Shown here: positions 43,277 to 62,695 of the stretch, in pieces | How positions within the stretch are numbered: position 1 is the stretch's first letter | Layout of the letters: each line of letters opens with the position of its first letter | Assembly: GCF_003334385.1 (NCBI RefSeq) | Contig: NZ_QOWN01000023.1 | From: Escherichia coli | GTDB lineage: Bacteria > Pseudomonadota > Gammaproteobacteria > Enterobacterales > Enterobacteriaceae | Strand: one strand, 5' to 3' | DNA: 64,000 nucleotides | The notes under the pieces: model-generated | Database searches by the model: none | What the model was told of the DNA's origin: nothing | What the model saw: the letters and a program-made list of their open reading frames with translations, nothing else | Translations under genes and position numbers: made by a program

Positions 43277-43358
43277 TTATTCAGTCGATAGTAACCCGCC
43301 CTTCGGGGATAGCAAGCATTTTTTGCAAAAAGGGGTAGATGCAATCGGTTACGCTCTG

Positions 43359-50821: not shown

Positions 50822-54434
<3,613 letters not shown>

Positions 54435-54605
54435 TACCACTTTTACTCCGTTTTATTCACGGGACACTGCCTGGATATTATGGCGAGCAATATTGGCAGA
54501 TGTCCAACTATGCCAGAAAAGGGGGAAAAAAACTGCTGGAGCTTGCGATTTACAGGTGAATTGAAAAACGCCAGCGGCAGAGCTGGCGCTTTAATTACGG
54601 GGGTA

Positions 54606-55243
54606 TTACTCGTCGGCAGCGTAGCCCTGCGGCGGCAGACGTTGACCATCCAGCCACGCGGCGTTTTCGTGCATTTTCAGACGACCATCGGCAAACCAGC
54701 TAATCACCAGTGGATAAATGGCGTGTTCCTGGGTTTGCACGCGGGCGGTGATGTCATCTTCCGAATCACCAGCAAATACCGGGACTTTCGCCTGTAAAAT
54801 AACCGGGCCACCGTCCAGTTCATCGGTGACGAAATGCACCGATGTACCGTGCTCTTCATCGCCATTTTCCAGCGCCTGACGATGGGTGTGTAATCCGGGA
54901 TATTTCGGCAGCAGAGAAGGGTGAATGTTCAGCAAACGCCCGGCATAGTGGGAGACAAACGCCGGGCTGAGAATGCGCATAAAACCAGCCAGCACGACCA
55001 CATCGGGTGCGTACATGTCGATTTCATGAATCAACTCCCGGTCATAGGCTTCACGACTGTCAAACGCGCTGGCGATGAGCGTATGCGTTGCAATACCCGC
55101 CTGGCGGGCGCGTTCAAGGCCGAACGCGTCGGCCTTATTGCTGAAAACTGCCCGTACGGTGCCTTTAATTTTGTTGGTTTTACAGGCGTCAATAATTGCC
55201 TGTAAATTACTTCCGTTGCCGGAAATAAGCACCACAATATTCA

Positions 55244-55244
<1 letters not shown>
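54606..55244 (-). CDS. purN: Phosphoribosylglycinamide formyltransferase
   Basis: MNIVVLISGNGSNLQAII N-terminus; 212 aa; 1-nt overlap with purM stop. Confidence 0.95.
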
Positions 55245-56299
<1,055 letters not shown>

Positions 56300-56344
56300 T
56301 TACTTGCGGTAGAAAAATAAAATTCGGCGCAATTCTAACAGGGA

Positions 56345-56360
56345 AAGCAAACGTTTGCGA
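56345..56360. promoter_or_regulatory. PurR operator (pur box) upstream of purMN
   Basis: AAGCAAACGTTTGCGA with 12-bp palindromic core GCAAACGTTTGC, ~65 bp upstream of purM start. Confidence 0.7.
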
Positions 56361-56535
56361 GACTGCTTTACACAACCTTTTTGCACGTCTTTTCCCCAGG
56401 CGCGCGGCGAAAGAAGACTTGTGCCAGGGTAAAGGTTAGTTTTCGGATGGAATAATCTTCTTTCATAACCATCTGAATATAAAATAACTTTATCTCAAAC
56501 CGTTATCATTTTGACTAAAGTCAACGAAAAGAATA

Positions 56536-56578
56536 TTGCCGCCTTGAAGAAAGGAGGTATAATCCGTCGATTTTTTTT
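56536..56578 (+). promoter_or_regulatory. upp promoter with T8 initially-transcribed tract (UTP-sensitive reiterative-transcription type)
   Basis: -35-like TTGCCG, 16 bp spacer, TATAAT at 56558-56563, then CCGTCGATTTTTTTTG. Confidence 0.6.
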
Positions 56579-56605
56579 GTGGCTGCCCCTCAAAGGAGAA
56601 AGAGT

Positions 56606-57232
56606 ATGAAGATCGTGGAAGTCAAACACCCACTCGTCAAACACAAGCTGGGACTGATGCGTGAGCAAGATATCAGCACCAAGCGCTTTCGCGAACTCGC
56701 TTCCGAAGTGGGTAGCCTGCTGACTTACGAAGCGACCGCCGACCTCGAAACGGAAAAAGTAACTATCGAAGGCTGGAACGGCCCGGTAGAAATCGACCAG
56801 ATCAAAGGTAAGAAAATTACCGTTGTGCCAATTCTGCGTGCGGGTCTTGGTATGATGGACGGTGTGCTGGAAAACGTTCCGAGCGCGCGCATCAGCGTTG
56901 TCGGTATGTACCGTAATGAAGAAACGCTGGAGCCGGTACCGTACTTCCAGAAACTGGTTTCTAACATCGATGAGCGTATGGCGCTGATCGTTGACCCAAT
57001 GCTGGCAACCGGTGGTTCCGTTATCGCGACCATCGACCTGCTGAAAAAAGCGGGCTGCAGCAGCATCAAAGTTCTGGTGCTGGTAGCTGCGCCAGAAGGT
57101 ATCGCTGCGCTGGAAAAAGCGCACCCGGACGTCGAACTGTATACCGCATCGATTGATCAGGGACTGAACGAGCACGGATACATTATTCCGGGCCTCGGCG
57201 ATGCCGGTGACAAAATCTTTGGTACGAAATAA
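56606..57232 (+). CDS. upp: Uracil phosphoribosyltransferase
   Basis: 208 aa from [20 protein letters not shown]; PRPP-binding loop [10 protein letters not shown]. Confidence 0.96.
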
Positions 57233-57247
57233 AGAATAAAAATAATT

Positions 57248-57278
57248 AAAGCCGACTTTAAGAGTCGGCTTTTTTTTG
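57248..57278 (+). terminator. Intrinsic terminator/attenuator between upp and uraA
   Basis: Stem AGCCGACT/AGTCGGCT followed by TTTTTTT. Confidence 0.7.
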
Positions 57279-57317
57279 AGTAAAGCGCCTATAACACATA
57301 ATACAGAGGATAATACT

Positions 57318-58607
57318 ATGACGCGCCGTGCTATCGGGGTGAGTGAAAGACCGCCACTTTTACAGACAATCCCGCTTAGTTTGCAACATTTGTTCGCCAT
57401 GTTTGGTGCAACCGTCCTGGTGCCCGTCTTATTTCATATTAACCCGGCGACTGTACTGTTATTTAACGGTATTGGAACGCTGCTGTATCTCTTCATCTGT
57501 AAAGGGAAAATTCCGGCTTATCTTGGTTCCAGCTTTGCCTTTATTTCACCGGTATTGTTACTGTTGCCGTTAGGGTATGAAGTCGCGCTGGGCGGCTTTA
57601 TTATGTGCGGCGTGCTGTTCTGCCTGGTTTCTTTTATCGTGAAGAAAGCGGGGACCGGCTGGCTGGACGTGCTGTTTCCACCTGCGGCAATGGGCGCAAT
57701 CGTTGCCGTCATCGGTCTGGAGCTGGCGGGCGTAGCTGCCGGTATGGCGGGTTTACTCCCGGCTGAAGGGCAAACGCCAGACTCCAAAACCATCATCATC
57801 TCTATTACCACCCTGGCGGTCACGGTTTTAGGTTCCGTGCTGTTTCGTGGTTTCCTAGCAATTATCCCGATTTTAATTGGCGTGCTGGTGGGGTACGCGC
57901 TCTCTTTCGCAATGGGAATTGTCGATACCACGCCGATTATTAATGCTCACTGGTTTGCGCTGCCAACCCTCTATACGCCGCGCTTCGAGTGGTTTGCCAT
58001 TCTGACTATTCTGCCAGCGGCGTTAGTGGTTATTGCCGAACACGTAGGGCACCTGGTAGTAACGGCTAATATCGTCAAAAAAGATCTGCTGCGCGATCCA
58101 GGTCTGCACCGTTCGATGTTTGCTAATGGCTTGTCGACCGTGATTTCCGGCTTCTTTGGCTCTACGCCAAATACTACTTACGGAGAAAACATTGGCGTGA
58201 TGGCGATCACCCGTGTTTACAGTACCTGGGTTATCGGCGGGGCGGCGATTTTCGCTATCCTGCTTTCCTGCGTCGGTAAACTGGCTGCCGCTATCCAGAT
58301 GATCCCATTGCCGGTGATGGGCGGCGTTTCGCTGCTGCTTTATGGTGTCATCGGTGCTTCCGGTATTCGTGTTTTGATCGAATCGAAAGTGGATTACAAC
58401 AAAGCACAGAACCTGATCCTGACTTCCGTGATTTTGATCATCGGCGTCAGTGGCGCGAAGGTAAACATCGGCGCGGCGGAGTTAAAAGGTATGGCGCTGG
58501 CGACCATCGTCGGTATCGGCTTAAGTTTGATCTTCAAACTGATCAGTGTGCTGCGCCCTGAAGAAGTGGTGCTGGACGCAGAAGACGCGGATATAACAGA
58601 CAAATAA
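57318..58607 (+). CDS. uraA: Uracil:proton symporter (NCS2 family)
   Basis: 429 aa from [17 protein letters not shown]; multi-TM. Confidence 0.94.
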
Positions 58608-58656
58608 TGTACCGACCGGGCAGTGTTGCTGCCCGGTTCAAACATCATGGGATTCT

Positions 58657-59403
58657 GTGGTAAACTTCTCGCGATTTTGTGAAATCCTGGTTGAGGTATC
58701 TCTGAACACACCGGCACAGCTCTCTTTGCCACTTTATCTTCCTGACGACGAAACCTTTGCAAGTTTCTGGCCGGGGGATAACTCCTCTTTACTGGCCGCG
58801 CTGCAAAACGTGCTGCGTCAGGAACATAGCGGTTACATCTATCTCTGGGCACGCGAAGGCGCGGGGCGCAGCCATCTGCTGCACGCGGCTTGCGCGGAAT
58901 TGTCGCAGCGTGGCGATGCGGTGGGCTATGTCCCGCTGGATAAACGCACCTGGTTTGTTCCGGAAGTGCTCGACGGTATGGAGCATTTGTCGCTGGTCTG
59001 TATCGACAACATTGAGTGTATTGCAGGCGATGAGTTGTGGGAGATGGCGATTTTCGATCTCTACAATCGAATTCTGGAATCGGGCAAAACACGGTTGTTG
59101 ATCACCGGCGATCGTCCACCGCGGCAGTTGAATCTGGGATTACCGGATCTCGCGTCGCGACTCGACTGGGGGCAGATCTACAAATTGCAGCCACTTTCTG
59201 ATGAAGATAAGTTGCAGGCGCTACAGTTACGCGCGCGTTTGCGTGGTTTTGAACTGCCGGAAGATGTGGGGCGTTTCTTGCTGAAGCGGCTCGACAGAGA
59301 AATGCGCACGCTATTTATGACGTTGGATCAGTTGGATCGTGCGTCGATTACCGCGCAACGTAAGCTGACCATTCCGTTTGTGAAAGAAATTCTGAAGTTG
59401 TAG
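58657..59403 (+). CDS. hda: DnaA-inactivating AAA+ protein Hda (likely true start at CTG 58702)
   Basis: AAA+ motifs (Walker A-like [10 protein letters not shown]; box VII); longest ORF from 58657, but from memory translation starts at a CUG 15 codons downstream. Confidence 0.88.
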
Positions 59404-59404
59404 A

Positions 59405-59522
59405 TAAGGTGTTTATTGTCGGATGCGGCGCGAACGCCTTATCCGAACTACGCGAAGTTAATCCATAGTATTCGTAGGCCGGATAAGACGTGGCAAGCGT
59501 CGCATCCGGCAATGTGCTTCAA
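59405..59522. repeat. Two REP palindromes (BIME) between hda and yfgD
   Basis: TGTCGGATGCGGCGCGAACGCCTTATCCGAACTAC ... GTAGGCCGGATAAGACGTGGCAAGCGTCGCATCCGGCA. Confidence 0.85.
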
Positions 59523-59540
59523 CTAGCGATGGAGCACATC

Positions 59541-59900
59541 TTAACCCACGATTTCCAGTACCTGCTCCGGTGGACGACCAATCCGCGCTTTGCCATTCGC
59601 GACCACAATCGGGCGCTCCATCAGCTTCGGATTATCCACCATTGCCTGAATCAGCGCCTCTTCGCTAAGCGAACTGTCAGCCAGGTTCAGTTCTTTATAA
59701 AGATCCTCTTTCTGGCGCATCAATTCACGGGCGCTATTCATCCCCAGTATTTTCAGCAAATCGCGCAGCGTTGCCGCATCGGCGGGTGTCTCAAGGTAGA
59801 GCACCACTTCTGGCTCCACGCCGTTTTCTTTCAGCAGGTTCAGCGTTTCCCGGCTCTTTGAACAGCGTGGGTTATGGTAGATTTTTACCTGTTTGGTCAT
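59541..59900 (-). CDS. yfgD: ArsC/Spx-family thiol reductase-like protein
   Basis: N-terminal YHNPRCSKSR motif; 119 aa. Confidence 0.85.
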   Translation of the reverse strand: MTKQVKIYHNPRCSKSRETLNLLKENGVEPEVVLYLETPADAATLRDLLKILGMNSARELMRQKEDLYKELNLADSSLSEEALIQAMVDNPKLMERPIVVANGKARIGRPPEQVLEIVG

Positions 59901-59920
59901 TGTTCTTCCTTTAATGCGAA

Positions 59921-61384
59921 TTACATCTTGGTATAAGGCTTAAAGCGTTCCTGCAGCTGGCGCAACTGGTCGATGCGCGCATCGTAACGCGCTTGTTGCA
60001 GGCTGCCTAATTTCACCTGCGAACTGGCGCTACTCAACAGCGAAATGGCCTGATCGAGTCGTCCGGCGAGCGCATAACCTTCTGCTCGCGCAGCCAGCTC
60101 CTGATCGCGGTTATTTAGCGCGGCTTCCGCCTGTGCCAGCAAATCCCAGCCGTTGCTGTCATCTTTATTATTAAAGGTGTAGCGATTCAGAATATTGGCC
60201 GCTTCTTGTGGTTGACCGCCTTGCAAATAAGCGTTCGCCAGGTTGAGCTGCAACACCGGATTGGTGCGTAAATCGCGGGCATTTTTCAGACGATTGATCG
60301 CCTCATTGGCTTTGTTTTGCCCAAGATCGATATCAGTAGCCAGATCGAGATACCATGCGTTGCCAGGTTCTGCCGCCAGTAACGGTTGCAGCGTTTTACG
60401 CGCCTCGTCGTATTTATTGGCTTCCATCGCCTGTAAAGCACGACCATATTGTGCTGCTCGTTGCTGACGAACGTTTCCTTTCGCCCATTCATCCAGCAAA
60501 TCACTGGTGAGCTGGTTACGTCCGGAATTATACATCCCCAGTGTGCGCGCTTTCGCCAGATAGAAATCTTCCGACGACTGCACCACCATCGGGCGCATCT
60601 GATTAGCACGGTTGCGGGCATCTGCCAGACGACTTTCCGGCAACGGGTGAGTCAATAAAATTTCCGGCGGGCGCGAGGAGTAACGCGCCTGATCGAGTAA
60701 TTTTTCGAGGAAGGTTGGCATCGCCTGCGGATCGAATCCCGAGCGTTGCAGCACCTGAATACCAATGCGGTCCGCTTCCTGTTCATTTTGCTGGGTGAAA
60801 CTGATCATCCCCTGACGCGTTCCCGCCAGTGTACCGGTCAGCGCCGCCATCCCCGCCTGCGGACTGGCCATCGCCAGTAAAATAGAACCTAACGCGCCGA
60901 CCCAGGTCAGCGGCGCGCTGCGCTGCTGATCTTCCATCGCTCGCGCCAGGTGACGTTGGGTGACGTGGGAGATTTCGTGCGCCATAACTGAAGCCAGTTG
61001 ACTTTCGTTATCGGAATAACGGAACAGGGCAGAGTGCAGCACCACGTTGCCGCCAAAGAAAGCAAAGGCGTTAATTTCGTCGTTGTTGATCAGAAAAAAA
61101 TGAAACGGTGTCTTAACCGAATTGGCATGCGAAACCAGACGCATCCCCAGCGAATTAATATATTGCGTTAACAGCGGGTCATTAATTAACGGCGCGCTGC
61201 CGCGTAGCTGGCGGACATAATAGTCGCCCATCTGCATTTCCTGACCAATGGAAAGCGTGCTTCCTGCGGAGGTTCCCATATCCGGCAAGGTGTCTGCGCT
61301 GTCGGCAAACGCCGGGGCTACCTGACCAATGGTCATAGCAGCAATGAGGGTTGCAACCAGGTTTTTTTTCAACTGCCTGAACAT
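59921..61384 (-). CDS. bepA: Periplasmic M48 metalloprotease/chaperone with TPR domain (BepA)
   Basis: Signal peptide; zinc motif HEISH ([14 protein letters not shown]); TPR repeats at C-terminus; 487 aa. Confidence 0.93.
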
Positions 61385-61596
61385 AACCTCTATCCTGTAT
61401 TTCTGGAGATAGTCATTTGACCGATACTGTGAAATATCGTTCCCACCGCGCCGCCTTTGAGTGTAACGGCGAAGATTAGCCCACTCAAATGACTTTTCAG
61501 TTTCCTGAATCCGTCATAAAAAGCGAAGTCTTTTTTGTGACATTTCGATACAATTGCGGATCGCAATCCCGCTCTTGAGGTTCAGGGAAGGTCTTT

Positions 61597-62658
61597 ATGC
61601 TCGAAATGTTGATGCAATGGTATCGCCGCCGTTTTAGCGACCCGGAAGCGATTGCCTTGCTGGTTATTTTAGTTGCCGGATTTGGCATTATCTTTTTCTT
61701 TAGTGGCCTGCTTGCTCCGTTGCTGGTGGCTATTGTGCTGGCCTATTTGCTGGAATGGCCAACCGTGCGTCTGCAATCTATTGGCTGCTCCCGCCGCTGG
61801 GCGACGTCGATTGTATTGGTGGTTTTCGTCGGTATATTGCTACTGATGGCGTTCGTGGTACTGCCTATCGCCTGGCAACAGGGCATCTACTTAATCCGCG
61901 ATATGCCGGGGATGCTCAATAAGCTTTCTGACTTTGCCGCCACGTTGCCGCGCCGCTATCCGGCGTTAATGGACGCGGGCATTATTGATGCAATGGCCGA
62001 AAATATGCGCAGTCGGATGCTGACCATGGGCGATTCGGTGGTGAAAATTTCCCTCGCCTCGCTGGTCGGTTTGCTGACCATAGCCGTCTATCTGGTGCTG
62101 GTGCCATTGATGGTCTTCTTCCTGCTGAAAGACAAAGAGCAGATGCTGAACGCCGTTCGCCGGGTGCTGCCGCGTAACCGTGGGCTGGCAGGACAGGTGT
62201 GGAAGGAGATGAATCAACAAATCACCAACTATATCCGCGGCAAAGTGCTGGAGATGATCGTGGTGGGGATCGCCACCTGGCTGGGGTTCTTGCTCTTCGG
62301 GCTGAACTATTCGCTGCTGCTGGCAGTGCTGGTCGGCTTCTCGGTTCTTATTCCGTACATTGGCGCATTTGTGGTGACCATTCCGGTGGTTGGCGTGGCG
62401 CTATTCCAGTTTGGCGCAGGTACTGAATTCTGGAGCTGCTTCGCGGTGTATCTGATTATTCAGGCGCTGGACGGCAACCTGTTAGTGCCGGTGTTGTTCT
62501 CCGAAGCGGTTAACCTGCATCCGCTGGTGATTATTTTATCGGTGGTGATCTTCGGTGGTTTGTGGGGATTCTGGGGCGTATTCTTCGCCATTCCGTTGGC
62601 GACGCTGATCAAAGCCGTGATTCATGCCTGGCCCGATGGGCAAATCGCGCAAGAATAA
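61597..62658 (+). CDS. perM: AI-2E family (PerM-type) inner membrane transporter
   Basis: 353 aa, ~8 TM segments. Confidence 0.85.
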   Translation: MLEMLMQWYRRRFSDPEAIALLVILVAGFGIIFFFSGLLAPLLVAIVLAYLLEWPTVRLQSIGCSRRWATSIVLVVFVGILLLMAFVVLPIAWQQGIYLIRDMPGMLNKLSDFAATLPRRYPALMDAGIIDAMAENMRSRMLTMGDSVVKISLASLVGLLTIAVYLVLVPLMVFFLLKDKEQMLNAVRRVLPRNRGLAGQVWKEMNQQITNYIRGKVLEMIVVGIATWLGFLLFGLNYSLLLAVLVGFSVLIPYIGAFVVTIPVVGVALFQFGAGTEFWSCFAVYLIIQALDGNLLVPVLFSEAVNLHPLVIILSVVIFGGLWGFWGVFFAIPLATLIKAVIHAWPDGQIAQE

Positions 62659-62695
62659 TCTTCAGCCCGACGAACTGTTTCGCCGGGCTGATTTT

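Follow-up and report, generated by a model that had tools for sequence, protein, structure and literature searches.

A PurR operator in the purMN promoter of an Escherichia coli genome

In a 64,000-nucleotide stretch of Escherichia coli DNA (hereafter the window), the 16 nucleotides at positions 56345-56360 are, with a probability that we put at about 0.97, the operator through which the LacI-family repressor PurR controls purMN. This operator is already known: it is documented by ChIP-chip and by site deletion, as well as by footprinting and expression studies to which the papers concerned refer, and is a textbook site. What is mildly new is incidental to it, namely a look-alike inside uraA and a clade-specific spacing between the operator and the -10 hexamer.

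Results

Sequence and gene context of the operator

Direct reading of the plus strand gives AAGCAAACGTTTGCGA at 56345-56360, or TCGCAAACGTTTGCTT on the purM strand, and this 16-mer contains a perfect 12-bp palindrome, GCAAACGTTTGC, at 56347-56358 with a central CpG at 56352-56353. The original prediction of a 16-mer with a 12-bp palindrome was thus exact in both sequence and coordinates. The site should preferably be read on the purM strand, with the promoter and not the start codon as its relevant landmark; we therefore annotate it as the PurR operator of the purMN promoter on the minus strand, relying on its sequence, its identity with the motif of Cho et al. 2011, its matrix score and its conservation.

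The box lies within the 325-bp gap that separates purMN, on the minus strand, from the divergent upp (56607-57232, plus strand), which like uraA is transcribed from the plus strand. The first gene of the regulated operon, purM (55244-56281, minus strand), encodes phosphoribosylformylglycinamidine cyclo-ligase, or AIR synthetase, and begins with GTG; the second, purN (54606-55244, minus strand), encodes phosphoribosylglycinamide formyltransferase; the purN start and the purM stop share one base. These assignments come from the open reading frames and from the RefSeq annotation of E. coli K-12 MG1655, to which the 601 bp around the box are 100% identical and in which the same genes are annotated, so that the predicted placement between divergent purMN and upp is borne out. 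The distance to the purM GTG, predicted as about 65 bp, was measured as 64 nt from the box edge nearest purM (56345) to the first base of the annotated start codon (56281).

An in-frame GTG at 56296 lengthens the mechanically called purM reading frame. We rejected this GTG as the purM start, since it has the support neither of the annotation nor of the GTGACCGATAAA start conserved in other genera. A Shine-Dalgarno-like GGGGA at 56290-56294 (minus strand) stands 8 nt before the annotated GTG, and the motif cgtGGGGAc is kept in most enterobacterial loci of the box-anchored stack described below.

Published binding and regulation at the same site

By ChIP-chip, Cho et al. 2011 (Table 1, PMC3159470) found a PurR region at 2,618,847-2,619,484, which they assign to purM-purN, with the motif TCGCAAACGTTTGCTT at 2,619,140-2,619,155 and a log2 enrichment of 2.08 with adenine and 0.98 without. 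The region corresponds to window positions 56016-56653. In the same coordinates purM starts at 2,619,219 (Liu et al. 2011, PMC3266220), which leaves 64 nt between the edge of the published motif and the start codon, as in the window. For Liu et al., CGCAAACGTTTGCTT is the PurR site, which they set beside the consensus CGCAAACGTTTNCNT; they report that the protective effect of the intergenic region cloned at high copy, which they attribute to PurR titration, was weaker once AAACGTTTGCTT had been deleted (PMC3266220).

According to Cho et al. 2011, PurR as a rule binds between -35 and -10 and prevents initiation, and in their Discussion purMN is one of the IMP-synthesis transcription units that PurR-hypoxanthine represses; the same study places the K-12 purR locus, with its own operator, at 1,735,808 (PMC3159470). 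The purR gene itself lies outside the window. A 2024 review illustrates the blocking of polymerase by PurR in E. coli with purMN. For the original footprinting and genetic work, the RegulonDB methods paper (PMC3548332) and the 2024 review refer to He et al. 1990 and Meng et al. 1990; Cho et al. 2011 also cite Meng et al. 1990, by title, for the regulation of purMN by purR.

The matrix score is suggestive but not decisive

The 28 PurR motifs tabulated by Cho et al. 2011 (Table 1), less the purMN site, served to build log-odds matrices; a second set, from 25 published sites, also excluded two other published sites inside the window. With the 25-site matrices the purMN box scored 17.58 bits in the oriented form and 18.64 bits in the symmetrised form, ranking second and first, respectively, among the ~128,000 positions of the 64-kb window, with an exact per-position P of 3-6e-7. 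This is the weight-matrix scan that had been proposed as a check of the prediction. When the whole window was shuffled 200 times with dinucleotides preserved, the score was nevertheless equalled or exceeded somewhere in 41 shuffles with the oriented matrix and in 13 with the symmetrised one, and therefore does not by itself prove function. Scaled from these shuffle counts, the probability of such a match in this one 325-bp promoter region is ~1e-3. The matrix score alone is thus suggestive, not decisive, and becomes significant only once position is counted.

Leave-one-out scoring gave the purMN site 17.3 bits, tied 18th of the 28 accepted PurR sites, of which it is an ordinary member by score. 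The further proposal, a comparison with other PurR operators, therefore also came out within the accepted range. The sequence TCGCAAACGTTTGCTT fits 13 of 13 specified positions of the classical consensus CGCAAACGTTTNCNT and 13 of 14 of the Cho et al. consensus ACGNAAACGTTTGCNT; the description of the palindrome as typical of PurR operators agrees with the full fit to the classical consensus and with the score.

The exact 12-mer GCAAACGTTTGC occurs once in the window, where 0.02 occurrences are expected, and was present in 2 of 100 shuffles. Two observations could be held to favour a chance palindrome without function: an equal matrix score turns up somewhere in 6-20% of shuffled 64-kb windows, and the 12-mer with up to two mismatches is not enriched in the window (4 observed, 5.5 expected), so that the loosened pattern has no value as a test. 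The evidence on the other side comes from the position and the conservation of the box.

Conservation of the box upstream of purM

A scan for PurM relatives, with one genome per species, found 593 relatives, and 80 loci were used, drawn from Enterobacterales, Pasteurellales, Vibrionales, Aeromonadales, Orbales, Alteromonadales and others. At 60 of the 80 loci a symmetrised-matrix match of at least 12 bits was found within 300 bp upstream of purM, compared with 8 of 80 for the remaining ~3,100 positions per locus, a control comprising about ten times more sequence. The upstream match outscored the control match in 64 of 80 loci. Counting the box as present when 10 or more of its 12 core bases matched, we found it upstream of purM in all Enterobacterales (38/38) and Vibrionales (14/14), in 8/9 Pasteurellales and in 1/2 Aeromonadales; none of the Orbales (0/3) or of the Alteromonadales and others (0/14) carried it.

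A box-anchored stack of sequences from 32 genera gave an information content of 1.72 bits per column inside the box, compared with 0.16 for the 45 nt on the left and 0.17 for columns more than 30 nt away on the right. Of 5423 E. coli genomes, 5419 carry an identical 41-nt segment with the box and the -10, although over the 601 bp around it 1876 of 5426 genomes show less than 99% identity. A chance palindrome is hard to reconcile with this invariance, with a box that sits exactly in the purM promoter and is kept across three orders while its flanks diverge, and with the published ChIP occupancy and site-deletion effect (PMC3159470, PMC3266220); we give it next to no probability.

Promoter position and conservation settle the identity of the operator. 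The purine-repressible control of purMN that had been predicted is supported by the ChIP-chip data of Cho et al., by the site deletion of Liu et al., by the matrix rank and by the conservation footprint in three orders.

A different LacI/GalR-family regulator, RbsR for example, might instead be the main binder, with PurR in a secondary role. LacI-family operators have in common a central CG and A/T-rich half-sites, and cross-recognition is conceivable. Against such a regulator, the sequence fits the PurR consensus CGCAAACGTTTNCNT at all specified positions, and the box is absent upstream of purM in Alteromonadales and Orbales; the orders that carry it are presumably those for which the gammaproteobacterial PurR regulon has been described. 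Moreover, tagged PurR itself was detected at this region by ChIP-chip, more strongly when adenine was added (Cho et al. 2011, PMC3159470). We consider a main binder other than PurR very improbable.

Position of the operator in the purM promoter

The stack contains a second conserved block, CTGnTAGAAT (consensus at 80% or more), which starts 4 nt after the box. On the grounds of consensus and conservation, TGtTAGAAT at 56332-56340 (minus strand; TG at 56340-56339, TAGAAT at 56337-56332) is the probable extended -10 of purM. The distance from the box to the -10 hexamer is exactly 7 nt in 38/38 Enterobacterales and 5-7 nt in Pasteurellales, as against 16-18 nt in 14/14 Vibrionales and 23 nt in the single Aeromonas locus. 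Relative to Enterobacterales, the operator of Vibrionales is shifted upstream by about one helical turn, and this spacing might reflect a somewhat different interference with polymerase.

The -35 zone reads TCGCAA; this stretch forms the operator's left half and makes a poor -35. Because of this weak zone, a two-hexamer sigma-70 scan, which returned the upp promoter only, found none for purM; the purM promoter appears to rely on its extended -10, which such a scan does not model. With the usual spacing of 6-8 nt from the -10 hexamer, transcription of purM would start at G 56325 or A 56324 (minus strand), and the operator would extend from about -35/-36 to -20/-21, covering the -35 zone. This putative start is consistent with the range of -35 to -10 that Cho et al. 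2011 give for PurR sites in general (PMC3159470), and with the placement of the PurR site '28 nucleotides upstream' by Liu et al. 2011 (PMC3266220), if the distance meant is that between the site centre, 56352.5, and a start at 56324.

The promoter-operator block lies 85-132 nt from the start codon in Mangrovibacter, Hafnia, Pectobacterium and Serratia, as against about 55-69 nt otherwise, and these genera would therefore have longer leaders. An Rfam scan of 52000-64000 returned no matches and so gave no sign that the palindrome or the leader belongs to a described RNA element; a loopless 12-bp palindrome upstream of both inferred starts would not be a transcribed hairpin in any event.

The upp side of the intergenic region

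The box occupies the intergenic region common to purMN and upp, and PurR reaches pyrimidine genes such as carAB, pyrD, codBA and pyrLBI (Cho et al. 2011, PMC3159470). PurR bound at 56345-56360 might on these grounds also control the divergent upp-uraA, placing uracil salvage under purine control. The sole promoter-like site for upp, however, TTGCCG-16-TATAAT at 56536-56563 (plus strand, two-hexamer scan), is about 200 bp from the box, too far for occlusion, PurR being a dimeric repressor that is not known to loop DNA. The fixed 7-nt spacing to the purM -10 in 38/38 Enterobacterales ties the box to purM, and Cho et al. attribute the peak to no genes other than purM-purN, with upp unmentioned in their main text (PMC3159470). 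A shared operator is in our view highly unlikely, and we retain the reading of the box as the operator of purMN.

Two further elements were observed on the upp side. The sequence GATTTTTTTTG at 56569-56579 (plus strand) follows the upp promoter-like site; a T-run at the transcript start typifies the UTP-sensitive start-site selection and the reiterative transcription that have been described for upp. Upstream of upp, a perfect 14-bp palindrome, TTGACTAAAGTCAA, is located at 56511-56524; its other strand is described by Liu et al. 2011 as an FNR site matching TTGATN4ATCAA, the deletion of which lowered a titration effect attributed to FNR (PMC3266220).

A look-alike in uraA and other matrix matches in the window

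On the oriented matrix one match in the window surpasses the purMN box, namely ACGGCAACGATTGCGC at 57694-57709 (minus strand), inside uraA, with 17.97 bits; the symmetrised matrix gives it 14.41 bits. On the plus strand this region spans codons for A-I-V-A-V of UraA. It is located ~1.1 kb downstream of the upp promoter and 1.3 kb from the purMN operator, is absent from the PurR table of Cho et al. 2011 and falls ~1 kb outside their purM ChIP-chip region (PMC3159470). Since it marginally outscores the purMN box on the oriented matrix and yet is not a reported site of PurR binding, a high score is insufficient for function. The match is probably a coding-sequence coincidence. It is quite improbable either that PurR at this match acts as a purB-like roadblock, in which case uraA would be an unreported second target beside purMN, or that the Vibrionales spacing reflects a different interference with polymerase. 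If PurR did bind the uraA match, uracil uptake would come under purine control.

The matrix scan also recovered, at 13.6-15.0 bits, two published PurR ChIP-chip sites (Cho et al. 2011): the guaBA motif GCGTAACCGATTGCAT at 43339-43354 (minus strand) and the yfgO/yfgC motif CCGGAAGCGATTGCCT at 61642-61657 (plus strand). The latter sits 45 nt inside a 353-aa open reading frame at 61597-62658, in a region that Cho et al. treat as intergenic. Within the hda reading frame, ACGCGCGCGTTTGCGT at 59229-59244 scored 13.6 bits; ~0.8-1.1 such matches are expected per window, and this one is probably due to chance.

Discussion

The operator analysed here is the same object as the E. coli K-12 purMN operator (RegulonDB/EcoCyc, purMp): the 16-mer, the 64-nt offset, the flanking genes and the DNA itself are the same, with no difference. 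Its closest comparison is the purF (cvpA-purF) operator ACGCAAACGTTTTCTT, given on its other strand as AAGAAAACGTTTGCGT by Cho et al. (PMC3159470). Both are 16-bp near-palindromes with a central CpG and a GCAAAC half-site, both lie in a pur promoter and both serve corepressor-dependent repression. The purMN operator, with its perfect 12-bp core, is the more symmetric, and differs from that of purF in having T instead of A at position 1 and G instead of T at position 13; its leave-one-out score is 17.3 bits, that of purF 22.0. We take the purF operator to be the DNA used in the PurR-hypoxanthine-DNA crystal structures.

The operator of purB and the autoregulatory operator of purR have the repressor and the motif family in common with purMN, but they lie downstream of the transcription start, within DNA that is transcribed or coding, where they act against elongation (Cho et al. 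2011, PMC3159470), whereas the purMN operator, over -35 to -20, would be expected to block initiation. The PurR-PurBox systems of Bacillus subtilis and Lactococcus likewise control pur genes in response to purines, but with a non-homologous protein, another motif and PRPP as effector in place of hypoxanthine or guanine, and are unrelated (2024 review).

Repression most likely follows the established course, for which binding and its dependence on the corepressor have been demonstrated by others. When purines are plentiful, a PurR dimer loaded with hypoxanthine or guanine as corepressor binds the near-palindrome, each subunit taking one GCAAAC half-site and the central CpG being contacted from the minor groove, structural details that are established for complexes of this kind. 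Bound 7 nt upstream of the -10 hexamer, at about -35 to -20, PurR is predicted from this position to exclude RNA polymerase sterically and to prevent formation of the initiation complex, so that purM and purN are repressed. When purines become scarce PurR leaves the operator and purMN is transcribed.

The value of this result is that of a positive control, in which a reading made from sequence placed a real operator to the base and named the right regulator and target. It also indicates what separates a true PurR operator from a look-alike in a coding region: promoter position together with conservation across genomes, and not the matrix score.
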